A stretch of DNA of 64,000 nucleotides. Source: an uncultured delta proteobacterium. Lineage in GTDB: Bacteria; Desulfobacterota; Syntrophobacteria; Syntrophobacterales; Syntrophobacteraceae. Below the pieces are notes generated by a model. It searched no databases. It worked only from the letters and a program-made list of their open reading frames with translations, and was not told the origin of the DNA. Position 1 is the first letter of the stretch. Every line of letters starts with the position of its first letter. The DNA lies in assembly GCA_963808625.1 (NCBI GenBank), contig CAWEHK010000054.1, positions 30,051-94,050 of the forward strand, given 5' to 3'. The translations under genes and the position numbers were made by a program. This document shows positions 1,119 through 20,242 of this stretch, in pieces.

Positions 1119-1133
1119 TGGCACAACTATTGC
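1119..1133 (+). promoter_or_regulatory. Sigma-54 (-24/-12) promoter of the lipoprotein operon
   Basis: TGGCAC-AACTA-TTGC is an exact match to the TGGCAC-N5-TTGC consensus, about 75 nt upstream of the ATG at 1208. Confidence 0.75.
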
Positions 1134-5208: not shown

Positions 5209-5525
5209 TCGCGATGGGCAGCGTATTGTGCCCAAGTTGAATTAGCATCTCTTATCGAATATCAGCAACTTAGAGGGCGGGGTCATGCAGGGGGGCTCTG
5301 CCTTCTTTCTTCCTAAGATTCCACAATCTAATTTTTCAAATTGCTTAAGCACTTAACTCAGCTGACCAGAACAGATGAGCACGACCACCGAAAGGTAGGA
5401 GAAGACATTCTTGACGTTGTGTGCTATCCTTAAATCATTATGAAAAACGGGTTGAGGGTGCAACGGCCATATCCCGGAACGATTTCTCAGTTATGAGGCC
5501 AAGAACCAACCAGGGAGCAGAGACA

Positions 5526-5828
5526 ATGCTGGGTGTCGAGTTTCACAAGAGCACAAAGAAAATGCTGGAAGAGCCATTCCTGGAAGGCGTCACTCTCGAT
5601 GAGAAGATCCGGCTGCTCCTTAAATCGGAATATTTGCGACGAATGGCCCGTTACCGCCACGTAGAACACCTGATGGTGAGCAAGTACGGTATGTCATTCG
5701 ACCAGTTTGTGGCCCGTCGCATGGTTAGGGAGAAAGGGTTTTCCTGGGATGTGGAATCCGATGCAATGGACTGGGAGACCGCCATCAGCGGGATGAAGAC
5801 CATGGAACGGAAACTCTCGGAACTGTAA
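5526..5828 (+). CDS. Small hypothetical protein, antitoxin-like
   Basis: GGGAG RBS; 100 aa with a KYGMSFDQF...DAMDWE pattern typical of small TA-associated proteins. Confidence 0.55.
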   Translation: MLGVEFHKSTKKMLEEPFLEGVTLDEKIRLLLKSEYLRRMARYRHVEHLMVSKYGMSFDQFVARRMVREKGFSWDVESDAMDWETAISGMKTMERKLSEL

Positions 5829-6169
5829 CAGGTCCAGGACGTATACGACATGCGACCTCCGTGCTGAGGCTCAGGAAGCCACGGTGCAGAGCTGGTTCGT
5901 ACATGATGTGCCTAGAGCGAATCGTCCCGAGGTCCAGGCACTATTTTACCGGAAGCTTCACGACAAACGCTGTGCCCTTCCCCGCTTCGCTCTCGCAGGT
6001 GATGGTCACATGAAGAGTATCCCCAATGGGCTTTCAACCCAGAATTTGATTCCCTCCTTCATGAATGGATTCATTTTTCGATCAATGTCTTCAGCAATGA
6101 TATGATAAGATAAATGGCAGTGGCGGAAGGTATTCCTGGAACCATTGCAGCTCAAGGATCAACAGCCGA

Positions 6170-6460
6170 ATGACAATCGCGGAGATTTTGAAGACCAAGC
6201 GGGAAGAAATTCTGCGACTGGCAGCGAAATATGGGGCGCGCAATGTGCGCCTGTTCGGGTCGGTTGCGCGGGGAGAAGCCGGTCCTGGGAGTGATGTGGA
6301 TTTTCTGGTGGAGATCGATCCAGGACGCAGTCTTATGGACCATGTCAGCCTCCTTCAGGATCTCGAGGATGTCCTTGGCTGCACGGTGGACGTAGTGAAT
6401 GAGAAGGCCCTGCACCAACATATCCGCGACCGCGTTCGACAGGAGGCGGTTCCACTGTGA
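6170..6460 (+). CDS. Minimal nucleotidyltransferase (MNT) antitoxin
   Basis: LFGSVARGEAGPGSDVDFLV motif. Confidence 0.9.
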   Translation: MTIAEILKTKREEILRLAAKYGARNVRLFGSVARGEAGPGSDVDFLVEIDPGRSLMDHVSLLQDLEDVLGCTVDVVNEKALHQHIRDRVRQEAVPL

Positions 6461-6793
6461 AAGACCCCCTACTTTACATTATCCACATTCATCAGTCTTT
6501 GGAGAAAATCCTGGATTACACTCGTGGCGGACGTGAAGCTTTCTTGGCCGACCCCAAGACCCAGGATGCGGTTATCCGCAATTTTGAGGTGATTGGCGAG
6601 GCAGCCAAACGCCTCCCCGAGTTCATCGTCCTCTACCCCCAAATTCCATGGCGGAGGATGGCCGGGTTTCGAGATATTTTGATTCACGCAGACCGATCGT
6701 GTGGACATGGACGAAATCTGGAACATCGTTGAACAGCATGTCGCACATCTTTTCGCGGAGATCAATGGCATCCGCAAAGCAATGCAGAGATGA
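6457..6793 (+). CDS. HEPN (DUF86) toxin, frameshifted near 6690
   Basis: DAVIRNFEVIGEA...IPWRRMAGFRDILIH (RX4H), continuing in another frame as DRVDMDEIWNIVEQH...AMQR*. Overlaps the MNT stop codon. Confidence 0.85.
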
Positions 6794-6903: not shown

Positions 6904-8707
6904 CTATCTTGCTGGCAGCTTCATGATGAATACCGTCCCCTTCCCCGGTTCGCTCTCGCAGGCGATGGTCCCCCGGTGGGCCTCGATGATGGTTTTGCAG
7001 ATGGCGAGGCCGAGGCCGGTGCCTTGTTTTCCCTTGGTGGTGAAGAAGGGGTCGAAAATCTTCTCCCTGATGTCGGGGCTGATCCCCGGCCCGGTGTCGG
7101 CGATGGTCACCTGAAGCGCATCCCCGGTGACCTTCCCGGTGATTTCAATGCGGCCCCCGGCGCCCACGGCTTCGAGACTGTTTTTCACGAGATTGGTGAA
7201 CACCTGGTGCATGAGGCGCTGATCGATGGTGACTGGAGGGAGCTCGGGCGGCCAGTCGAGGTGAATCGCAATCCCTTTGCTTTCGGCCTGGGCCTCGAAC
7301 ACATAGAGGAGCTCCCGGAGCGTCCCCTCCAGTGACGCCCGCTGCAGCTTGAGCTCCGGTTTCTTGGCAAACTGCAGGAAATTCTGGATAAAGGTCCTGA
7401 CCCGCGCGGCATCCTTTTCCATGATGGCGATGGCCCTTTCGCTGGCGGGACTGAGCGTTTCCTTTTTCAACACATTCAGGGTGAGGCCCATGTTGTTGAG
7501 AAGGTTCCCCACCTCATGCGTGACCTTGCTCGAGGTGGCCCCAAGGGTCGCCAGGTTTCTCGCATGAACGAGCTCCCGTGCGCGTCTCCACCTCCCGCTC
7601 GATGAACTGCTTCAGGGAATCGGCCATTTCGTTAAAAGCCGTCCCCAGTTCCCCGATTTCATCCTCGGACGCAATGTCAATTCGCTGATCGAGCTCGCCC
7701 CGGCCATACTTCTCAACCTGGTGGTGCAGGGTCCCGCACCGGCAGGAGAAAATGCCTGACTCGAGACCAGGTCAGGGCCACCGCCGCCAGGCAGACGAAA
7801 AGGGTGATCGCCAGCGCCAACCAGAAATTCTGATAGAGATACGCATAGATCTCGCGCTCTCTCTGGCTGAGCACAATGAACCAATCGGAGCCTGGAATGC
7901 TGCCGCCCAGGCAGTAGTAGGTTCCGTCATCACGCTTTTCCGACCACGCAACCGGGGCGTCCGGAGACTCACGGAGCTTCTCCAGGACGCCGGGCGGCAC
8001 TCCCGGAAGTTCCTTGATAACGCGGTCGATTTCCCGGTGGCCGATGAGCTTTCCCGTGGCATCCAGAATAGTAGACCATGCCGCTTTCGCCGATCTGGAT
8101 GCCTTCCAGGACATCCCAGATCGCCTTGAGGTTCAGTTCCGCCAGCAGCACCTGGCTCACCTGGCCCAGTCGAAATACCGGCGCGGCGATAAAGAGGTAG
8201 GGGATGTGCTCCTTGGTGACCATTGACTCCCGAGGCGGCCATTCGCCCGGCCAACGCTTCACGGTAAACTTCGAGCTGATCCGGCGCCGTTTCACTCAGG
8301 CGTTGACCCACTGCTACCGGGTCTTCTCCATCCGGCGAGACGAGGGAAAGCCAGACGAACTCGGCGGCAATATGATGGAATGCCGTCAGCGCCATCTCCT
8401 GCTGCCACCGGTCCACCTTTGTCGCCGCCAGCACCCAGGCGAGGCTCTCCAACCCGTTTCTGGCATCGCCCAGGAACGCCCGGATTTCGCCTGCCGAGCT
8501 CTTGATGATATTGGTGTAATCCTGTCGGACCGTTTCTCTGAAGCTCAGGTAGCTGGTCCAGGAGAGGACAAGACCGGTCACAGCGATGGCAAAGACCAGC
8601 AGGGGCAGGAGAAAGCGAAGAACTCGAGCGAGCAGTCTGCTCTTTCTGAACTCTTTGACCGCCTGGTGCAGTCCCAAAATCCTCGGCATAGGTCTGGCAA
8701 CTTTCAA
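6904..8707 (-). CDS. Membrane sensor histidine kinase (Cache-like, HAMP, HisKA/HATPase), frameshifted
   Basis: N-terminal TM helix, periplasmic domain with LDATGKLIGH, second TM helix, DEIGEL HAMP, HEVGNLLN H-box, and DTGPGI...FDPFFTTK..GTGLGL, distributed over several frames. Confidence 0.85.
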
Positions 8708-8918
8708 GAAAGAAGCTCACATCAACTCAAACTAAGTTTACCATAACCTTTTGCAGACCTGGCCCTTGCGAATCAGAGCAGTGTGCGCTCCATAACCTGC
8801 TGCCTACAAAAATTCAATGCTGATAGCCAGCTCCCATCGGCGTATCGGCATGTCCGGCTTGACCCGGAGGACGGAAAGAAGTATTTTGGGAATCGAAACT
8901 TCCACTTTGAGGCGCAAA

Positions 8919-10120
8919 ATGGAAATAATACCTCGATTTTTCCGGGTCCCTTCGCAGAGTTTCTTCCTTTTCGGCCCTCGTGGTACGGGAAAGTCGACCT
9001 GGCTGCGTCATGAACTGCCGGATGCGCTCTTCGTGGACCTGTCAGGCCCGAGGTGCACCGCGAACTGAGCGCTCACCCCGAGCACCTGAGGGAACTGGTT
9101 CTCGGATCTCCCGACCGCCATACCGTCGTCGTCGATGAAGTGCAGCGGGTGCCCGAGCTCCTCAACGTGGTGCACGACCTGATGTCAAAGCCCGTTTTCC
9201 CGCGTTTTGTCCTCACCGGTTCGAGTGCTCGCAAGCTGCGGCGTGGCGGCGTCGATTTGCTCGCCGGACGGGCGCTCTTGTGCACTCTCCACCCCTTCAT
9301 GGCTGGGGAATTGGGGGATTTTCATGTGGCCCGGGCGCTGCGCCAGGGACTCTTGCCTCTTGCGGTCGCTTCTCCTTACCCCGATGACGTTCTCAAGGCC
9401 TACGCTTCTCTCTATCTCGAACAAGAAGTCCAGGTCGAGGGATGGGCCAGGAACGTGCCCAATTTCGCCCGATTCCTCGAAGCAATCAGTTTTTCCCATG
9501 CCGCCGTTTTGAACATCAGCAATGTTGCTCGAGAATGTCATATCGAGCGCAAGACCGTGGCAACTTACGTCGAAGTCCTTGAAGATCTCCTGCTCGCCTT
9601 TCGTGTGCCGGTGTTCTCGCGTCGCGCAAATCGTGAAACAGCTGCCCACCCCAAATTTTATCTCTTTGACGCCGGCGTTTTTGGCTCAATCCGGCCGCGG
9701 GGGCCCCTGGATCGCCCCGAGGAAATCGCGAACGCTGCGCTGGAAGGTCTGGTAGCACAGCACTTGCGTGCCTGGATCGCCTACTCGGCCCATCAGGCCG
9801 GTCTTTTCTACTGGCGCACTCGTTCCGGGGTCGAAGTGGACTTCATCGTCTACGGTGAAGCGGGTTTCTGGGCCATCGAGGTAAAGAATACCGCCCGCGT
9901 GCGGCCGCAGGACTTGCGGCCGCTCAAGGCCTTCGTCTCAGACTATCCGGAATGCTGCCCATGCCTTCTCTATCGCGGGGATGAGCGACTGAAAATTGGG
10001 GGGATCTGGTGCCTGCCCGTAGGAGAGTTCTTACACCGGTTGCACCCTTCCCAAAGGCTTAATGACTGGCTTGGGCCCCGTGATGACAGCAATTCCACAA
10101 GTATCAGCCCTTCCTCCTGA
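8919..10120 (+). CDS. AAA_14 / DUF4143 ATPase, frameshifted near 9050
   Basis: GPRGTGKST Walker A, VDEVQ Walker B, TGSSA, and C-terminal YWRTRSGVEVDF..IEVK. Confidence 0.88.
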
Positions 10121-10627
10121 CTTCAACCGTGAAGGTCGCAACCTGGGCGTTGCTTTCTTCCGCTTGACGGATGATTTCCGCAAAGCGGTCCGGTCCGATT
10201 TCCACCTCGTTCTCACTGATCGCCAGCGGACCGGCAGAGTAAAAGAGGAAGAGCTGGTTAATCCCGACATCATCCTCGGAGAATACCGGTGTAATGTGCA
10301 GTGGCTGCAAAACCTCCCTGTTTTCGTACAGGACCACAATGTCCTTCCGATCTCGTCGAATCATCAGGAGCGGAGGATCATAAAGGCCTCCTGCGCCCCA
10401 TCCGCCTCCGTATGGACCGCGCGGAAGGCATCCGGCATCCGCCGGAATTCCCACCTTCCCCTGGCCAGAACAAAGTTGACCAGGGCGACCAGCCGAAATT
10501 TTTTGAACTCCTCTCCGGAGACATTCTTCGACTCACCTTTGCCTTCGGAGAACGTGAAATCTTTTGTCTTCTCCCACAGGAAAGCAAACAATTCCGGGTG
10601 ATTTTCATCATCGACATGAGACTGCAT
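10104..10627 (-). CDS. Hypothetical protein, probably one frameshifted gene
   Basis: Two overlapping protein-like ORFs (10364-10627 and 10104-10454) in the same orientation as the peptide/kinase block. Confidence 0.45.
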
Positions 10628-10754
10628 GGCGCCGATTTACCCTTCCCTTCATGTTGATCAGCCTGATCAGCGAGAACCTCGCAAACAAGTTCCCACCATT
10701 TAGAGCGTGTCAAAAAAGCTCTCACTGGATGAGCTCTCAAAACTGGCTTACTCT

Positions 10755-10823
10755 GTCAACCCGGCGGAAGCAGGGATCCAGAATCCCGCGGAAAACCTGG
10801 ATTCCGGCTTTCGCCGGAATGAC
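10755..10823. repeat. GTCAT(T/C)CC...GGAATGAC palindromic REP-like element
   Basis: GTCAACCCGGCGGAAGCAGGGATCCAG...CTGGATTCCGGCTTTCGCCGGAATGAC. Related copies at about 20298-20368, 23896-23992, 28519-28543, 39798-39867 and 54263-54339. Confidence 0.75.
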
Positions 10824-11374
10824 GGTCAAACGCATTTTGACGATTTTGAGGTAATTACTTAACAGCTTCCTCCATTCCGATCAACCACCATCGGAGTCCT
10901 GTCCATTTCTTCCACTCCCGACCGGTTCCCGGTCTCGCCATCGATACTGATGTCAAGAGGCCGGGCAGCAGTGACTGGGGAGTGGCCCCATTCATTGCCT
11001 GCTGCCGAATCCCAGTTGCTGCCAAGGCGATTTCCGGCAAAATGCCTCACCGCCTGCGCCCTCTTGCCCCGGTGCTGGGGAGGGTGCCGCCTGAATGCCC
11101 TGGCAAGTGGAGAAAATTTCAACGGTGTTGACTGCCAGGAAGAGGCCATTTGGCTTATCCTCGATGAGCACATAAGGCAGCAGGTACTAACCGCGCTTTC
11201 ATCGAAAAATGTGCCCATGGCAAGGGAAGCGGTTTGATGGGGGCTGGGTTGAAACAGTGACAATGATAGCGAATGGGCTACTCACACAGGTGGATCGCCC
11301 CACAAGCACCGAATGCCCTTGTGGGCGGACCCTGTCGTGAAGAGACGCATGCTCATGAAACGGGTCCACGGGGG

Positions 11375-11412
11375 CCAATCCCCCGGGCAAATCAGGTTGC
11401 CCGGGGGATTGG
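11375..11412 (-). terminator. Strong stem-loop immediately 3' of the small peptide gene
   Basis: Perfect 16-bp stem CCAATCCCCCGGGCAA / TTGCCCGGGGGATTGG with a 6-nt loop. There is no U-tract, so it may be an mRNA-stabilising hairpin rather than an intrinsic terminator. Confidence 0.6.
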
Positions 11413-11421
11413 GGTTAGAGG

Positions 11422-11511
11422 TTAGCCCACGGAGAACGGGCCGAGCTGGCAGCAATAAAACGCCGCGGCGTCGATGTCATAAGTACCTTTTTCAATCACG
11501 AACAGTGTCAT
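11422..11511 (-). CDS. 29-aa Cys-Cys peptide MTLFVIEKGTYDIDAAAFYCCQLGPFSVG (putative RiPP/signal precursor)
   Basis: Not in the ORF track. Preceded by a perfect Shine-Dalgarno (AAGGAGGTGATACC-ATG) and followed by a 16-bp hairpin; the upstream region is AT-rich. Confidence 0.75.
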   Translation of the reverse strand: MTLFVIEKGTYDIDAAAFYCCQLGPFSVG

Positions 11512-11854
11512 GGTATCACCTCCTTTCCTTGCATATACCCGCCTTTTGTGACACCAGCATTTAATCTACAGATCGCTGGGAAGGTGGTATTCAGGTCACT
11601 TTGATTGAAAAAAATTTATATAATGATTCAAATATGATACAACCGATCGCCAAGAGATTTTCAACGACGATCGACCTGCGTCACCTAATTCTCACGGAAT
11701 GACGAGAGGTTTGATGAGTAATTCAAGGTGTGGACGTGCATTGGGGGGATACGCATGGAACAGGCAATCTATGAACCGCTGCTTCGCAGTTCATTGACAG
11801 CGGTTGCGATTTCGAACTCTATCGAAGGGGAAAACTGGCATCCGCAGGAAGTGG

Positions 11855-13431
11855 TCAACGGGAGCCGAGTGAAGCCTGCCACAAACGGTGTGTTCCAGAA
11901 TGATCAAATGAGAAACGATGTGGCAAGCGGAACCGTTTTGACATTACATCAAATTTGACCTCATGAACGAGAAACACCCCCGGATGGAGCGAAGCAACCA
12001 AGGAATCCACTTCCTGATAGAGGCTTTTACGTTTGTCGGAGTCTTTAGCCTGAGCGATTCCATGCAGCACTGCAGCGATCTGCGGGTGATCGAACAAACC
12101 CACTCCTGTTTTTTGCCCATCGACGCCAGCCCATACCTGCACCACGATTTCAGGAGCTTTTGAAGAAGCCCACAATTGTGTGAGCACGGCCTGGAATTCC
12201 TTATTATGATCATATCTATGCAAAAGCTCATTTTGCGCCAATGAGTTCAGATACGTTTTTATACCGACATCATTCAGGAAAAGCTGTAAGCATTCCGCGA
12301 CCAGTTTGTCGATCAGGTGTCCCTCAGTGATTAGGATGCTGAATTCAAAGCGTTTCCCTTGCCGATGGAGGAACTGATCCTGCGAGTCGTACATCCAGCC
12401 TGCCTGCTTGAGCAGTTCCAGTGCTCTGCCTGGATTGTAGGGAACAGGCTTCAATTCCGGTTTGTGGTAAGGGGAGTTCACTCCGAAAGGTCCAGTTGCC
12501 GCCATCCCCGCACCATGGAAGATGCTGTCAATGAGGGCCTGTTTATCCACCGCATAGGCCAGCGCCAGACGCACATCCGGTTCGGTAAAGAGGGGATCGG
12601 TGGTGTTGAACAGGAGAATCGAATAGTACTCCGAGACTACCTCGTTGAAACAAAATCTGTCATGGTATTGCTTTAACATATGGTAGTCTTTGGGCGAGAG
12701 TCGTACACCGATATCTGTTTTTCCCGAAAGGAGTCTGGCCCAGGATTTTTCTCCATCCGGCTCGTAACACAAAAACAACCTCATCCAGGGACGGCCTGCC
12801 GCCATAGTAGCTTTCGTAGGCTGCGAGGCCAACTTCTTTCTCTCCTCTTCGATATTTGAAACGAAACGGCCCGGACCCAATCGGATGATCAGAGAAGTCG
12901 GGAAGGATCCCTTCCGGGATGGGGAATAATTTCCATATCCCATATCTTCATAGGGAAATCCGGATCGTTTCTCTTCAGCCTGATAAGCAGAGAGGTATCC
13001 GTGAGGAGAGTAATCCGATCGATCAAGCCAAATACTGAGGGCCGCCAGATTTCAAGGCTGTACCCCAGCGAATAATCGACATCCCTGGTTGTAAGGCGAC
13101 GGCCGTCATGGAACAGAGCGTTGTCTCTAAGATATATGGTCCAGGTGAAGCTGGCGGCATCATAGTCCCATCGAATCGCCAGATCCGGTTCAAGTTGCCC
13201 GTCTTCATCAGGGACAAAGAGATAACTGTAAAGCAGCGGGAAGACGCTCGAAGAACCGGATTCGGAGCCTTTCACGGGGTCTAATGAGCCGAAAGGAGCA
13301 GGAATATCGATCCTGAGAACATTCTCGTTTTGACTCCCGGTCTCGATGGAAGAGTGCTCGGCTTTGGTGCAGGACAACATGAGGAGGACTATTGGAACCG
13401 CCAGTAACAACGCCCATAGACTCCTCAGCAT
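11855..13431 (-). CDS. ABC-type solute-binding lipoprotein, family 5 (OppA/DppA/NikA-like), frameshifted near 12900
   Basis: Lipobox LMLSC, SLDP, LEPDLAIRW...LRDNALFHDGRRLTTRDV, VRLALAYAVDK and YNPGRALELLKQAGW. Confidence 0.88.
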
Positions 13432-13547: not shown

Positions 13548-16065
13548 TCAAAACGTGCCACTGTATTTCAGGAAGGCCCAGTAATACGGGTGCGCGCCAG
13601 GACTCAGGAGCGAGGCCTCCTGTTTCGACATTCTCCCCCTGGTGCCGGAGCTGTCAGCCTCGACGAATCCTTCCTTAAGCACCTTCCGCTGCGCTTCATG
13701 GAGGGCTTTAACCGGCTGCAGACCGTCTCTTCGCCTTCGATGGAATTCCTTCATGACTTCCCAAGCACCCTGGTCATTGATCGGATAAAAACTGCTGACC
13801 ACTCCCCTGGCTCCCATCTGGAGGAACACGCCGTCGAGGGCCAGATATTCTTCGTACCGCAAATTCCACTCGTCACTTCTGCCCGTCTCGCAGGCGGCGA
13901 GGACCGCCAGGGGCAATCCGGCGAGATTCAACGCTCCTTATCATATCCGCATGAGACACGTCACCATCGGCGAGGTGGAGTGAAATACCCTCCGCAGTCC
14001 TTCTTCCATGACAGATGAGTTCCATGAGGGAAAGCTCTCCTCGCATAGCTTTTGAAGCATCGACCAGGCCTCGAACGTGGCCTTGCCGCCCTGGAGCGGG
14101 ACCACCTGCCCGGCGCCGTATGTATCGAACAGATATTGAAATTCCTGTTCTCCGTAAGGAAGAGGCCGGTCGGCTGGCGCATAAAAGAGCGCCATAGGCC
14201 TTCTTCCCATCGCACGCTTCGGAGCAAAACAGGCGATAGCTGAGCGTGAGGGAGGGAGTATAGCACACCTCGAAATCCTCGATGAAAAACCTCTTCGTGT
14301 CAGGGAGGAAGGCGGCATGGAGGGGAAGGCATGGAGAAAAGCATGAGGGGAAAGGTAGATTCGCCGGGTCCCGATCTGGCTCAGAAACGCCGCCACCGGC
14401 TGCATCAATTGTCCCGTCACCTCCAGCAGGGTATCGAGACTGGGAAGGATCGATGCCCCTCCCGTCCGAAAGGAGTCGACGAAGCCGCCAAGAGCCTCCT
14501 CCAGCAGAATCGGCTTGAGATCTTTGAGGATGTGCTCATAGGCGATTCCCGAGTCGGTGGGATAGGCGAGCAGGAAGTGAAGATCGGCAGACTCCCGGCG
14601 AAAGAAGCACTCCACCGCGGCGCTGCCCGTTTGCGACAAGAGCTCGAAAAGCTCCGCTTCCGTCAAGGGCTCGGGGTGGATGAGATTGATGTAATCCGGA
14701 TCGAGAACGGTTAACTCTTCGAGAAGCACCTTCTGTCGGTTCAGATGTTCCTTAAGCGACGCGTACAGCTCCTGTTGCCGGGGATTGCCGCTGGAACGGC
14801 CCGGCGTCGCGCTAACTTCTTTTTCCGTGGCTAATGCGGCTCGCAACCCCCGGAGATCATGGCAGAGCTCCCAATACTTCCGGACAGGCTCGGCGGCCTG
14901 ATCATTTCGTGGGCTCACCTGCTCCAGATTGACATCCTCCAGGAGGCTCCGGGAGCGCATCTGTTCGAGCCAGTACAGGGCCTCGGCATAGCGGCGCTCT
15001 TCCAGCATGAAATGGACCCCGACATCGAAGAGACTGACCGAGCGCCGGAGATAGTCCCTGCGGGCCTTGGGGTCCGCAATTTCGCTATGGATGGCAGAAA
15101 CGAGCTTCAGTGCTTCAGCCATTGCCTCGAGTGATTCGTCCAGCAACTCCCTGTTGTTTTCCAGCCGAGCCTGGTGCAGGAGTGAGAACCCGAGACCATA
15201 CCGGGCAAAGCAGTAGAGTTGCGGACGGGTGCCCGCATCCACAACGGAGAGGGCGGCCCGGTAATAGCGCGCCGCTTGAAGGAACTCGATGGCCTTTTCG
15301 ATATTCTCCGCCGGGTTCCCTTCGATACGCCGCCGGTAGGCATTCGCCAGGGCATAGCGGGTACATTGCCCAATCCCCTGGCACGAGCTCTTTGGTCCAG
15401 ACCGAAAGCGCTTCTCCAAAACAATCAATGGCCTTTTCCAGGTTGTCTGAAGGATTTTCCCTGATCCGTTTTGCGTATGCGTTTCCGAGTGCATAGAGGG
15501 TCGCCGCCCAGTCCAGGGGAGCGGCCTCCCTGGTCCTGACCGTAAGCGTCTGATTCAGGCAATTGATGGCTTCTTCCTGGTTCTCCGCCGGGTCTCCCTT
15601 GATACGAACGGTCAGGGCGCCGCCTAGGGCGGTCATGGCCAATGCCCAATAGCCCGGAGCGCCGGCCCTTGTCCATACGGTGAGGGCCTGCCGGTAATAG
15701 TGGATGCCCTTCTCCCCATTTTCGGCAGAGTTTACGTTGATGCGCACCATATAAGCGTTCCCCAGTGCGTACATGGTCAGCGCCCGCTCGTGCCCATGGG
15801 TATCGGGCCACAGAGACAGCGCTTCCTCCAGATACCTGGTGGCGTACTCGGCATTCAAAGCTGGACTGCCGAGGGAGACCTTGAGAAGTTCCATGCCAAG
15901 GTTTGTATGAAGGAGCGCTCTCTTTTCCGGTGATGACTGATCGTCGGCAAGAGTTTCGAGCCGGGATACCAATTGCGTCAACTGATGCTTTGTTTCGACG
16001 TTATCGGCTGCTGCCATGAGAGCCTTCAAGTGGGCTGATGTCTGCTCATGAAATCGTCTGTCCAC
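13548..16065 (-). CDS. TPR-repeat plus CHAT (caspase-like) domain protein, several frameshifts
   Basis: Repeats EN.EKAI..ALTV.T....P..WA, then E..RSRSLL, SPHAFLH, catalytic ICHG and LAACETG, and a HPYYWA C-terminus. Confidence 0.85.
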
Positions 16066-16220: not shown

Positions 16221-16575
16221 TTAGAGAAAGACTTTGTAACCAATATTTAAGGCCTTACTCAGTTTCTTCGCCGTCTCCTTTCCAATCGGTCGTTTTCCGT
16301 GCTCCATTTCAGAGATATGCCGCTGGGGGATGCCGGTCATTTGCGCAAGCTGCTGCTGTGTCAAACCCTCTTTACCCCTGGCGCCAGCCAGCATGGCGCC
16401 CGGAGTCAGCTCCTCTTCCTCGAAGCACTCACGCCATGGAAGAGAGTCTGAGATTTCTGTGAACCCCAAAGGCCTAAGGACTTCAATCGCCTCATTCTGT
16501 TTCTTCATCGGTCCAAGGAACCGCAGTTGCACCCGCTGCTCCTCAATAAGGCGCTTTTTCGTGAGAACCCCGCAT
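16221..16575 (-). CDS. XRE-family HTH antitoxin (HigA-like)
   Basis: GLTQQQLAQMTGIPQRHISEMEHGKRPIG. The true start is probably ATG 16575, with a 1-nt indel in a G run. Confidence 0.8.
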
Positions 16576-16690
16576 AGGTCACCTCAACCAATCGGATTTC
16601 TGGTTGTCGATCACTCTCCGAAATTCCAGCAACTAGGTATGTTCCGACCTTGAGTCTTGATGTGGGCAGATTATCCGTTGCTATGAGCCT
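16544..16690 (-). pseudogene. Truncated RelE-like toxin remnant
   Basis: Only the C-terminal EIRLVEVTYAG(S)HEKAPY* is recognisable, overlapping the antitoxin start. The 5' part is missing. Confidence 0.55.
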
Positions 16691-16719
16691 AAGTCAAGGT
16701 CGGTCATCGCCTCAGAGAG

Positions 16720-18897
16720 TCAAAACTGATAATTCACCCCGCCCTCGACCCACCGTCCGGGCTGGGGATAGGTGTAGCGGAGGAGATAACCGGTGTTGGT
16801 CAGGTTGTGGACGGTGAAAAAGATGCCCGGCTTTCCGGCGCAGGCGGGGACAAAGGGCAGGCTTGACCTTGAGCATGTAATCGAAGACGAAGACCTGGTC
16901 CCGGGTTTCGGGAACGCTCGAGTTGTTGTAGACATACCGGCCAATGAGGGAGTGGGTCATCCACTTGTAGGTGTAGGATGCCGATGCATCGTAGAGAATG
17001 CGCGGCACATCCTGGATGATTTCATCGGTCTCGTCGTTGCGGACATCGATGAAGCTCCCGCCGAAGGACAACCCCAACCCCCAGGGCAGGGTCGCCGCGA
17101 TTCTCCCCTCGACGCCCTGCCGGGTAGCCTCATCGAGGTTTTCATACCTGCGGAATTGCCCATTCTCGAAAAACGTGGGCACGAGGAGGTTGTTGACATC
17201 GGCCCGGAACAGGGTGAGTCCCAATTTCAGAAACTGGAACATTCTGAAGTCGCCGCCAACCTGGTAGTTGACTGCCGTTTCCGCCTCGAGGTCCTTGTTG
17301 CCGTGAAGCGGATCATTCACCCAGAGCGCCGGGGGCGCCGAAAAGCCGCGGGCGATCTGCGCCCGCAGCAGGGCGTCGTTATCGAGAAGGTGGTAGACGA
17401 TGCCGCCCGAGGGGCTGACTTCCGAACCGAAATCGAGGTTGTTGTCGTAGCGGAGACCGGCATTGAAGGCGAATTTTCCCAATTCATAGGTGTCGTTGGC
17501 ATAGAGCGCCCAGTTTCCCGAATCGTACCTGGTCAGGAGGGGACTGACCCAGGGAGCTCCAGTCGTAGTAGCCCCAATCGCCGTCAAACCCGACCAGAAA
17601 GCGATTGGCTTGCCGGTCGTAGCTCATCCGGGCCGAAGCCCCCAGGGTCTGCTGGAGGTAGTCGAAGTAGCTCAACTTCGAATCGGGGAAGATGAAGTCG
17701 TAGGTCGAGGTGTAATTCCTGATGACGGCCTTCAACGGTAAGATTGAGGCCATCCGCCAGCAAGGTCTCGAACTGCAGGCGCTGATAGCTGCGCTGCTGG
17801 GAGGTGTCGGCAAAGAAGCCTCGGGGCGGCCAAACCGGGATGGGCGTCTCGGTGTGACCGCGATCGAAGCTGTAGATGAAGTTGAGGCGGCTCGCCTCCC
17901 CGGTGAGGAAGTTCAGCTTGGTGTAGACCGCATCCTGCCGATAGTCATTGTTGGGCATGATGCCGTCACTGTTTTCATGGGTCGCCGAAACAAGGTAGCT
18001 GAAGCGCTCGACGAACCCGCTGACCGTGGCCCTCCCCCGCGCCGTGTTGAAATCGCCATAGGAGGCCGTGGCATCGACGGAGACGGGCTTGCTCAGGTCG
18101 GGCTCGCGGGTGATGATGTTGATCACCCCGCCCAGACCCGACCCCCAGGCCGACGAAGCCGCTCCCTGGTAGACTTCGATGCGCTCGATATTGGCAACGG
18201 GAAGAAAGGAGAGGTCCGTCAGCGGGTTGGCGAGCTGATTGAGCGGCACACCGTCCTGGAATACCGCCACATGCCGCACCTCCGAACCCTGAATCGAGGC
18301 CACTGACAAGCTGCCGGGGCTGCCGCCGTTGAATTCGACGTAAACCCCCGGCACGTACTGGAGCACTTCGCCGACGTTGTTGACCGGGATCTTTTCGATT
18401 TCCTCCCGGGTGATGACGGAGACGTTCGCCGCCACATCCGATTTGGGCGTGGCCTGGCGCGTGTAGGAAAAGACCAGCTCCTCCCGCTGGCCGGCGCCCG
18501 GTCCCGAACCCTGGGTTGGGGTCCCCGCCGACGAGGCGTCGGCAGATGAGTCTCCGCTCAATTCCTCAGCAAATCCCAGGTTTGCTCCGAAGGACATAAA
18601 GCACAGGAGACATAAAAAAAAGATCAGGCCGCTGCACCCTGGCGCGAGCCCACACAAATAACTGTCCGGATTCGTTTCGTCATACCGGCGAAAGCCGGTA
18701 TCCAGGTAGCGTTCTGGATTCCCGTTGTCACCGGAATGACGCGTCAGGTCTATGGTCACTTTGTTCTGTGGCGTTGTACTTTGTGCTGTGCTTGCTGGAG
18801 CATTCTCTTTCGGAGAACGCCAACAGAAGGCGATGCCGGGCATCGGGACGGGCGGCATCGCAGCAGCAGGAGCTTCAGGTCTCTTTCGCATCATCAA
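16720..18897 (-). CDS. TonB-dependent receptor (plug plus beta-barrel), frameshifted; the start is uncertain and probably downstream of 18897
   Basis: VSVITREEIEK, VFQDGVPLN, IERIEVYQGAASSAWGSGLGGVINIIT, GLRYD, and a C-terminal GRWVEGGVNYQF with terminal Phe. Confidence 0.88.
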
Positions 18898-20242
18898 TGC
18901 CGTATCCCTTCATTTTTTCGATCAAGGTCTTGCGGTTTATGCCTAGCAGATCCGCGGCCCGGGACCGGATGCCCTGCGTCCGTTTCAGGGCCAGCGTGAC
19001 GAAACACCGCTCGGCGTCTTTCAGGTTCAGGTCCGGTATGGCGCCAAACTCCTCCTGGTCTTCTTTGAACGGCAGGTGGCTGGTGGTGATGATGGTGGAA
19101 TTGCGGCAGGTGATCACCGCCCTTTCGATGACATTCATCAGCTCGCGGACGTTTCCCGGCCAGTCGTAATTCTGGAGGGCCAGCATGGCGCCGCCGGAAA
19201 TCTCGGTAATCGGACGACGGTAGGTCTGAGTCAATTTCTTGAGGTAAAACTCGGCAAGGTCCGGAATGTCGTCCCGTCGGCTGCGAAGCGGTGGAATGTC
19301 AATGACGTAGAGGTTGAGACGGTACAGAAGGTCTTTCCGAAAGCGCCCGGCGGCCACCCGCTCTTCGAGGTCCCGGTTGGTGGCGGCAAGGACGCGAAAA
19401 TCCGAACTTATCCTGGAAGTTCCCCCGACCCGCATGAAGCTCTTGGTCTCGATCACCCGGAGGAGCTTCGCTTGAAAGGCGGCTGAGGCCTCGCCGATCT
19501 CATCGAGGAGGATCGAACCCTCGTTGGCCAGTTCGAGGAAGCCTTTCCGGAGACCGACGGCCCCCGTAAAAGCACCCCGCTCATGCCCGAAGAGCTCGCT
19601 TTCGAGCACCCCTGGCGCGAACTTGGCGCAGTTGATCTCGAAGAAAGGTTTGTCCCGCCGCTCACTGCGGTTGTGGATATCCTGAGCCACCAGTTCCTTG
19701 CCGGTTCCGGTCTCGCCACTGATCAGGACCGGCACGGGAAGCTCCGCCACCTCCTCGATCTGCTCCCGTACTCGCTGCATGGCCGCAGAGCGCCCGATGA
19801 TCGCGACCGGCCCCTTCGCTTGAAGCGACCGCTCCCGGCTGAGATGATCGAGCTGTTTCAGCAGCTTGCGCTTCTCGAGCGCCTCGCGAAGGGTCGTCCA
19901 GAAGAGGTCCAGTTTATCGGTGAGCGGCTTCTCGAAGTAGTGAAAGGCCCCCTGCTTCACGGCCCGAATGGCCTCTTCCGTGGAACCGAACGCGGTGATC
20001 ATGATCACCGGGATGTCCGGGCGGCTGTCCTGGACCCTGGTGAAAAGCTCCGTTCCCGTCATCCCCGGCATCTGCACGTCCGAGATGATCACGTCGACGG
20101 AGGTCTCTTCCAGGACTTCGAGGGCATGGGAAGCAGAGGCCGCAGGAATGACCTCCAGCTCATGAGCCGCAAACTCCGGAGCGAACAGCTCCAGAAAAGC
20201 CGCATCATCATCTACCAGCAACACCTTGGGCCGGGTTGTCAT
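18875..20242 (-). CDS. Sigma-54-dependent response regulator (REC-AAA-Fis HTH, NtrC family)
   Basis: LLVDDD...DVQMPG, GETGTGKE, GAFTGA, WPGNVREL, and an HTH. Confidence 0.95.
   Translation of the reverse strand: MTTRPKVLLVDDDAAFLELFAPEFAAHELEVIPAASASHALEVLEETSVDVIISDVQMPGMTGTELFTRVQDSRPDIPVIMITAFGSTEEAIRAVKQGAFHYFEKPLTDKLDLFWTTLREALEKRKLLKQLDHLSRERSLQAKGPVAIIGRSAAMQRVREQIEEVAELPVPVLISGETGTGKELVAQDIHNRSERRDKPFFEINCAKFAPGVLESELFGHERGAFTGAVGLRKGFLELANEGSILLDEIGEASAAFQAKLLRVIETKSFMRVGGTSRISSDFRVLAATNRDLEERVAAGRFRKDLLYRLNLYVIDIPPLRSRRDDIPDLAEFYLKKLTQTYRRPITEISGGAMLALQNYDWPGNVRELMNVIERAVITCRNSTIITTSHLPFKEDQEEFGAIPDLNLKDAERCFVTLALKRTQGIRSRAADLLGINRKTLIEKMKGYGIDDAKET

Follow-up and report, generated by a model that had tools for sequence, protein, structure and literature searches.

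A 29-codon open reading frame (ORF) in the 64,000-nucleotide stretch of Syntrophobacteraceae DNA analyzed here (the window) almost certainly encodes the precursor of a RiPP. Comparative sequence analysis indicates that the precursor gene is real, conserved, and co-inherited with a radical SAM/SPASM enzyme that carries an RRE. The locus also holds the remains of that enzyme's gene, regulatory genes, and genes for uptake and sensing (Table 1).

Table 1. Features of the precursor locus, in window coordinates
Feature	Position	Strand	Basis or remark
Precursor gene, 29 aa	11422..11511	-	Translation and alignment of homologues
Shine-Dalgarno site, full 11-nt match	11515..11525	-	Motif search
Hairpin, arms 11412-11397 and 11390-11375	11375..11412	-	Folding
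RACC-N18-CGATM motif, 86 nt before precursor start	11571..11597	-	Motif scan
Second RACC-N18-CGATM copy, in retained 5' region of deleted maturase gene	10920..10946	+	Motif scan
Radical SAM/SPASM maturase 3' remnant, 77 codons	11004..11237	+	Profile match, comparison with G007
Maturase deletion junction, 7-bp repeat	11004..11010	+	Alignment to G007
FliA/WhiG-like sigma factor 5' third, residues 15-110 of 318	10367..10654	-	
zf-HC2 anti-sigma gene, distal remnant	10104..10377	-	
REP-like repeat, between divergent sigma and maturase genes	10735..10863	.	Dozens of genome copies
SBP_bac_5 lipoprotein, frameshifted in assembly	11855..13431	-	
TonB-dependent receptor, plug and barrel, frameshifted	16712..18897	-	
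Receiver-domain sigma54 activator, intact	18875..20242	-	
dCache-HAMP histidine kinase, frameshifted	6904..8707	-	
TPR/CHAT (caspase-like protease) gene in pieces	13548..16065	-	Absent from other clade loci compared

A conserved two-cysteine precursor and its maturase

Translation of the ORF agrees with the peptide claimed in an earlier sequence-only reading of this DNA, and the full Shine-Dalgarno (SD) match that it had placed upstream occurs once in the window, both strands searched. SD-like sites also lie 5' of the listed precursor homologues. The peptide is laid out as a hydrophobic stretch, G9, an aromatic residue at position 11, an acidic linker, C20-C21, and P25. The gene had been called unannotated, which holds insofar as no name is shown for it; the exact peptide exists as a singleton in the protein collection, so some gene caller has already predicted the ORF. 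Pfam and NCBIfam scans gave no family match for the peptide, and no paralogue was found in this assembly.

The earlier reading had staked the gene on homologues that keep the CC motif and on codon-level conservation, and both were found. After removal of seven duplicates or near-duplicates, 26 peptides (this one counted) were aligned. C20 and C21 are the only invariant positions, G9 and P25 occur in at least 90% of the peptides, and the spacing from G to CC is fixed. The CC of the proposed CC..GP core is thereby confirmed throughout, whereas its GP is not invariant. Nonsynonymous divergence is lower than synonymous divergence (pN < pS) in 316 of 325 pairs, a figure that overstates the signal because the pairs are related and not independent, and identity is 0.33 at third codon positions versus 0.55 and 0.59 at the other two. 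No selenocysteine variant was found upstream of 15 related maturases that lack a CC peptide.

Co-inheritance with the maturase was followed using the NCBIfam model TIGR04280. In the genomes of 61 relatives, this model gave 12 matches in 11 genomes, at 131 to 219 bits. A CC peptide adjoins eight of these matches, and the four without one are a maturase on a contig of genome G008 (G008-C7) and three weaker matches. A metagenome scan yielded 31 maturase loci, 24 of which have a CC peptide next to the maturase. Among the seven misses, five have a maturase match that starts at most 58 nt from the contig end, and two are weak matches.

The intact maturases of relatives carry CxxxCxxC, the SPASM cysteines (seven conserved), and an N-terminal RRE, as expected of radical SAM/SPASM maturases of this kind; this genome keeps the last five of these cysteines only. 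The RRE was recognized in a structural model of the maturase of one intact relative, G006 (42-row alignment; pLDDT, 92), which begins with a three-strand, three-helix unit, a pattern that we take to be that of an RRE. The top PDB match of this model is 5wgg (TM score, 0.64; identity, 16%), a thioether-forming peptide maturase, presumably CteB. Going by this model, the modification would most likely consist of thioether cross-links on the two cysteines, and no invariant acceptor residue is visible in the peptides besides the near-invariant G9 and P25. By analogy with SbtM, the product may alternatively be a thiooxazole.

Two candidate promoter types and a putative signaling circuit

The homologues fall into two subtypes. 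Type I (19 peptides) has a mostly neutral or basic linker and lies directly upstream of the maturase; type II (seven peptides, this one among them) has an acidic linker and is transcribed apart from the maturase. In a quick tree, the type II maturases cluster together (support, 94), nested within type I, with G008-C7, which has no adjoining peptide, standing as the seventh row in place of the remnant in the window.

A sigma54-type site lies at -82 to -102 in 18 of the 19 type I precursors versus one of the seven of type II, as judged with a pattern that was loosened after a stricter pass, in which 7 of 26, compared with an expected 0.1, had reached a 9-of-10 match to the consensus. No such site was found before the precursor in the window, the strict pattern was absent before its SBP, receptor, regulator, or kinase gene, and no sigma70 consensus promoter was found at 10500-12600. 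Elsewhere in the window, a near-perfect sigma54 -24/-12 site precedes an unnamed ORF (1119-1133, plus strand).

Type II has a different motif, RACC-N18-CGATM, which stands 80 to 147 nt upstream in six of the seven type II precursors versus none of the 19 type I precursors, and before five of the seven type II maturases (background, 0.44 per 10 kb). Because six upstream regions of precursors and three of maturases had already been viewed when the pattern was settled, only the matches at the G008 and G010 maturases are blind. The motif is absent from all four peptides found later, among them that of G466, which has the sigma cassette described below. We regard the motif as a candidate -35/-10 promoter of a sigma factor encoded in the locus.

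This sigma factor is FliA/WhiG-like and is encoded with a zf-HC2 anti-sigma factor in the loci of this assembly (G000) and of G006, G007, G008, and G010; a homologue search with the G007 sigma factor returned that protein alone. In G006, G008, G010, and G466 the locus further encodes a 660-aa membrane protein in which HExxH and a downstream ExxAD are both present (4/4), which we take to be the motif definition of peptidase M48. Of 96 genomes of the order, only the four from which the query was built encode this protein, and in each it lies at this locus. PF01435 matched one of three scanned proteins at 18.8 bits (cut-off, 20.3), and the Atlas search, with M48 clusters as its first matches at 0.85, gives no more than a lead. 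A hybrid arrangement was seen at locus L151 (G466:C303), where the sigma, anti-sigma, and M48-like genes stand together with a sigma54 activator, an SBP, a type I peptide, a maturase, and a kinase.

Intact relatives encode, with the peptide and the RRE-radical SAM/SPASM enzyme, a TonB receptor, an orphan SBP5 lipoprotein, a dCache kinase, and a sigma54 activator. Across 17 loci of at least 12 kb, SBP5 was found in 15, the dCache-HAMP kinase in 14, the sigma54 activator in 13, and the TonB receptor in 12. No exporter or peptidase is conserved across the clade loci. The window holds counterparts of all four: its SBP retains the lipoprotein cysteine, the three main pieces of its receptor are 68-76% identical to the intact G006 protein, and its kinase is 60-74% identical to the G006 counterpart. 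A complex of the G006 SBP and kinase was predicted with a score of 0.44, compared to 0.00 for the best control; between-run agreement in contacts is 94% or higher, and partner pLDDT is at least 84. The mark applied was reached by 116 of 157 solved pairs and 2 of 215 mismatched pairs, and, at scores of at most 0.60, by 18 solved pairs and both mismatches. The prediction weakly suggests that the SBP and the kinase interact.

Other genes lie among these in the window. The TPR/CHAT gene sits between the TonB receptor and the SBP and may encode a stand-in protease for this locus or be cargo with no relation to it. An HTH_3 (Xre-type) gene and a small upstream ORF, toxin-antitoxin-like, occupy 16221-16653 (minus strand) between the receptor and the TPR gene. 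Small ORFs at 5421-6732 (plus strand) are presumably nucleotidyltransferase/HEPN-type toxin-antitoxin genes.

In intact relatives, we propose, the RRE would bind the hydrophobic-G-aromatic leader, and the enzyme would modify the two cysteines, with thioether cross-links the most likely outcome. The core would then be cut off, the M48-like membrane protease being the candidate cutter in the type II subtype, leave the cell, return via the TonB receptor, and bind the transporter-less SBP5 lipoprotein, which, once loaded, would act on the dCache kinase. For most members, feedback from this kinase and the sigma54 activator onto the sigma54 promoter of the precursor would close an autoinduction loop, while in type II the dedicated sigma/anti-sigma pair would drive precursor and maturase from separate promoters. 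At the sequence level, the loci show the layout expected for autoinduction, with sensor and regulator genes present and a promoter of the corresponding type upstream of the precursor. We hold the chances to be evenly balanced that the product is a re-imported peptide signal, that is, one that is made, exported, re-imported, and sensed, with feedback on its promoter. The exporter is missing from the recurrent genes, a gap for this proposal and for a metal carrier alike.

The same precursor and enzyme could instead make such a metal carrier or buffer, a metallophore, which we think somewhat unlikely. The two cysteines would become thiooxazole-like or other ligands, the receptor and SBP would recover the metal complex, and the kinase or sigma factor would report metal status. 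Published systems offer parallels: methanobactin is imported by the TonB receptor MbnT and bound by the OppA-like MbnE (PMC7558416), SbtM converts Cys to thiooxazole (PMC9204691), and a neighboring sigma/anti-sigma pair controls bufferin metallophore clusters (PMC11626156). In addition, the best NCBIfam matches of the SBP are NikA-type nickel binders, at scores far below cut-off, and CC alone is invariant in the peptides. However, the loci scanned for domains show no ABC permease next to the SBP and hence no encoded path into the cytoplasm; none turned up either when the 15 SBP loci were searched with a crude ATPase motif, a search that overlooked a known ABC gene in L031. Linker charge and the residues after CC differ by subtype, which suits signal specificity, and among solved structures the nearest fold, despite low identity, belongs to a thioether-forming enzyme.

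Taken to its full extent, the peptide-signal proposal describes a RiPP pheromone circuit in outer-membrane anaerobes with two wirings. The sigma54 wiring would achieve autoinduction via receptor, SBP, and kinase; the wiring by FliA-like sigma factor, anti-sigma factor, and M48-like protease would be derived and use the RACC-N18-CGATM promoter; and the genome studied here would have lost synthesis and kept sensing, as a signal-negative listener. That all these parts hold jointly is unlikely in our estimation. Should the product prove to be a signal, this would represent peptide-based cell-to-cell signaling in Syntrophobacteraceae-type anaerobes, of which, to our knowledge, there is no known case.

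Two probable deletions and a putative orphan precursor

Contrary to the sequence-only reading, which saw no radical SAM gene in the window, the 3' end of a maturase gene is present, convergent with the precursor. Its best family is TIGR04280 (profile positions 378-425 of 428; E value, 3e-8), its frame is open, and the five last SPASM cysteines are retained. Relative to G007, an intact reference locus from the same genus, the remnant has a pN of 0.13 and a pS of 0.50; with the open frame, these values indicate that the loss was recent.

Alignment to G007 locates the break. Window positions 10386-11010 match the region upstream of the G007 maturase, and positions 11004-11278 match it from codon 366 onward, so that the maturase 5' untranslated region (UTR) runs, through a 7-bp repeat, straight into codon 366 of 441. 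Compared to G007, the locus lacks about 1.13 kb, and with it the SD site, the start codon, the RRE, the radical SAM domain, and the first two SPASM cysteines. A second gap, of about 1.19 kb, fuses the 5' third of the sigma gene to the tail of the anti-sigma gene, and the M48-like gene of relatives is missing in this genome as well. At the position that this gene takes after the anti-sigma gene in relatives, the window has an AAA_14/DUF4143 ATPase gene in two pieces (8817-10120, plus strand). No second copy of the maturase or the sigma gene was found in the assembly, which is 84.6% complete. The two deletions (about 1.1-1.2 kb) are, as aligned, recent in this genome, and they are likely to be real.

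Another explanation for the break, in which the REP-like repeat or a toxin-antitoxin insertion had cut the maturase, was rejected. The 5' UTR downstream of this repeat is still in place and continues into codon 366, and the neighboring ORFs are the sigma and anti-sigma remnants.

It is rather improbable that the living organism has an intact system and that the two deletions are assembly artifacts or a minority allele, although the assembly does contain many indel errors. Frameshifts occur in 31 of 94 control genes (orthologue-like genes obtained from 200 G006 queries), and rpoC is in five pieces (G000:C22:89339-93327), so gene breaks in this assembly are to be read with care. The remnant without a stop, its low pN relative to pS, and the two intact promoter motifs fit an undamaged locus too, and they imply that any loss was very recent. 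Against this explanation, two separate kilobase-size deletions hit functionally linked genes, one of them at a clean 7-bp repeat; an internal gap of more than 300 nt occurs in only one of the 94 control genes, and there it measures 380 nt; and the M48-like gene has gone too. Public reads were also searched. Placed at 80% likeness, four public DNA runs (shares, 0.04-0.06) leave the peptide gene uncovered and the junction unbridged, and no RNA run is listed for this genome. Short matches to the REP-like repeat dominate the public runs placed here. A 151-letter contig (X1) matches 11003-11151 without difference, with two letters unplaced at the junction end, and is too short to decide the matter.

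On the preferred reading, that of real deletions, the precursor is an orphan, since they took the maturase and the sigma/anti-sigma pair, and it is probably neither induced nor matured in this genome. Read-through from the same-strand SBP gene is possible. Maturation in trans by an unassembled maturase copy is possible too, because G008 has precursors and a maturase on separate contigs. That genome carries three precursors and two maturases on four contigs (L150, G008:C141; L152, G008:C60; L031, G008:C7), two of the precursors having no maturase within the 14 kb fetched and one maturase, G008-C7, having no peptide. This layout suggests action in trans or several signal types.

The sensing genes may be decaying too. 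The four together have 9 frameshifts versus 2.3 expected (Poisson P = 6e-4), a comparison to be read with the fact that error rates differ between contigs. Since rpoC is broken as well, frameshifts in the SBP, receptor, and kinase genes do not by themselves establish decay.

The hairpin described by the sequence-only reading, a perfect 16-bp stem with a 6-nt loop starting 9 nt past the precursor stop codon, is as described. Its energy of -37.6 kcal/mol (z score, -5.63) was equalled by none of 200 shuffles, and hairpins with z scores of -2 or less lie 3' of the precursor in 18 of 26 homologues, in a conserved position. RNAalifold on 10 hairpins gave five consensus pairs only, from a poor alignment. 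With no U-tract following it and no report from the terminator scan, the hairpin does not class as an intrinsic terminator. It probably protects the mRNA or causes partial termination rather than acting as a terminator, because it is also present where the maturase follows on the same strand.

This strong, positionally conserved hairpin would also suit an unmodified peptide, either a leader/attenuator or a small metal-binding peptide with the hairpin as a regulatory element. Such a role is very improbable: in G000, G006, and G007 the peptide and maturase genes are convergent, so that nothing lies downstream of the peptide gene to be attenuated, the partner enzyme has an RRE-like domain, and precursor and maturase have a common promoter motif. 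A chance ORF in an intergenic region can be dismissed. Short ORFs that contain CC and follow a loose SD number about 80 in this genome, so that homology carries the case for the gene, and the peptide has no family match, but the 26 homologues, their fixed spacing, and their codon-level conservation refute a chance origin.

Relation to known peptide systems

No paper on the chemistry or role of the geopeptide family was found in a search that was thin on subscription journals and supplementary RiPP-mining tables. New here is a subtype with an acidic linker, its own transcript, the RACC-N18-CGATM motif, a FliA-like sigma factor, an anti-sigma factor, and an M48-like protease. The locus offers several testable handles, namely two exact promoter types, candidates for the sigma factor and the protease, and small, intact precursor-maturase pairs in relatives. 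The copy in the window is itself damaged, and its chief value lies in offering a natural example of lost synthesis.

The geopeptide system is defined in the database only, as NCBIfam TIGR04229 together with TIGR04280 (a hypothetical equivalog). The sequence-only reading had likened the peptide to geopeptides and RiPP precursors, which is borne out by homology and by the adjoining RRE-radical SAM/SPASM gene but not by a TIGR04229 match, and the maturases form a separate clade. In hhalign, the profile of the 26 peptides matched that of 21 peptides found beside TIGR04280 maturases at 92% (E value, 6e-7; 29 columns), and the two sets of precursors are very probably homologous on this evidence. Both have a short precursor of about 25-45 aa with a hydrophobic stretch, Gly, and then CC, encoded beside a radical SAM/SPASM gene (a remnant here, intact in relatives), and both have an adjacent TonB receptor. 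TIGR04280 is also the best full-length family for the intact maturases (179-189 bits versus <96 for the next).

The maturases of the clade score 179-219 bits against a TIGR04280 cut-off of 400, whereas true members reach 611-679, and they are about 23-29% identical to those members. In a quick tree (midpoint root, SH-aLRT only), 26 clade rows and 21 over-cut-off rows form separate groups, each with a support of 100, divided by a branch of 1.35. The clade has the fixed G-to-CC spacing and P25, has sigma54 or candidate dedicated-sigma promoters, and regularly has SBP5, which is absent from the nine wide over-cut-off loci compared. By sequence, the precursor-maturase system is thus a sister clade of the geopeptide system and not a member of it by score or tree.

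TIGR04229 (cut-off, 30 bits) did not match the peptide in the window, and two of 24 homologues scanned scored 17.9 and 15.0 bits. This means little because the model also misses peptides beside geopeptide maturases: none of 22 further peptides, 20 of them beside over-cut-off maturases, reached 30 bits, two additional peptides scored 29.6 and 18.9 bits, and none of 401 genomes gave a score above the cut-off. True TIGR04280 maturases occur in 27 of the 401 genomes of the phylum. Variants were encountered along the way: L129 (G210:C1:372000-392000) carries a pair of geopeptide maturases separated by about 6.6 kb, and the CC peptides that accompany them differ from each other; L099 (G083:C105) has a geopeptide variant with CxC replacing CC before an over-cut-off maturase; and in L122 (G195:C405) a distant maturase is preceded by an unrelated 48-aa peptide rich in Trp, Cys, and Pro.

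The SCIFF/ranthipeptide system (CteA/CteB), listed as quorum sensing in Clostridia in a review table (PMC8326336), likewise combines an RRE, radical SAM, and SPASM in an enzyme acting on a Cys peptide, and 5wgg is the top structural match. It differs in that identity is 16%, the peptides here have two cysteines and not six, and TIGR03974 gives 33-34 bits only. Here, moreover, the host is Gram negative, with an outer-membrane receptor and a periplasmic binding protein.

Methanobactin is modified by MbnBC, whereas modification in the present system would fall to a radical SAM/SPASM protein, and MbnBC-type genes were not recurrent in the clade loci scanned. The two are alike in that a TonB receptor and an OppA-like binding protein accompany a Cys RiPP (MbnT, MbnE, and MbnA, respectively, for methanobactin); methanobactin is a copper carrier with this same receptor and binding-protein layout (PMC7558416).

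SbtM is a radical SAM/SPASM enzyme of Geobacter and relatives that converts Cys to thiooxazole, and it resembles the present system as an enzyme of the same phylum that oxidizes the Cys of a short peptide (PMC9204691). The substrates differ: SbtA has the motif GGUG with Sec, whereas all 26 peptides described here use ordinary Cys codons.
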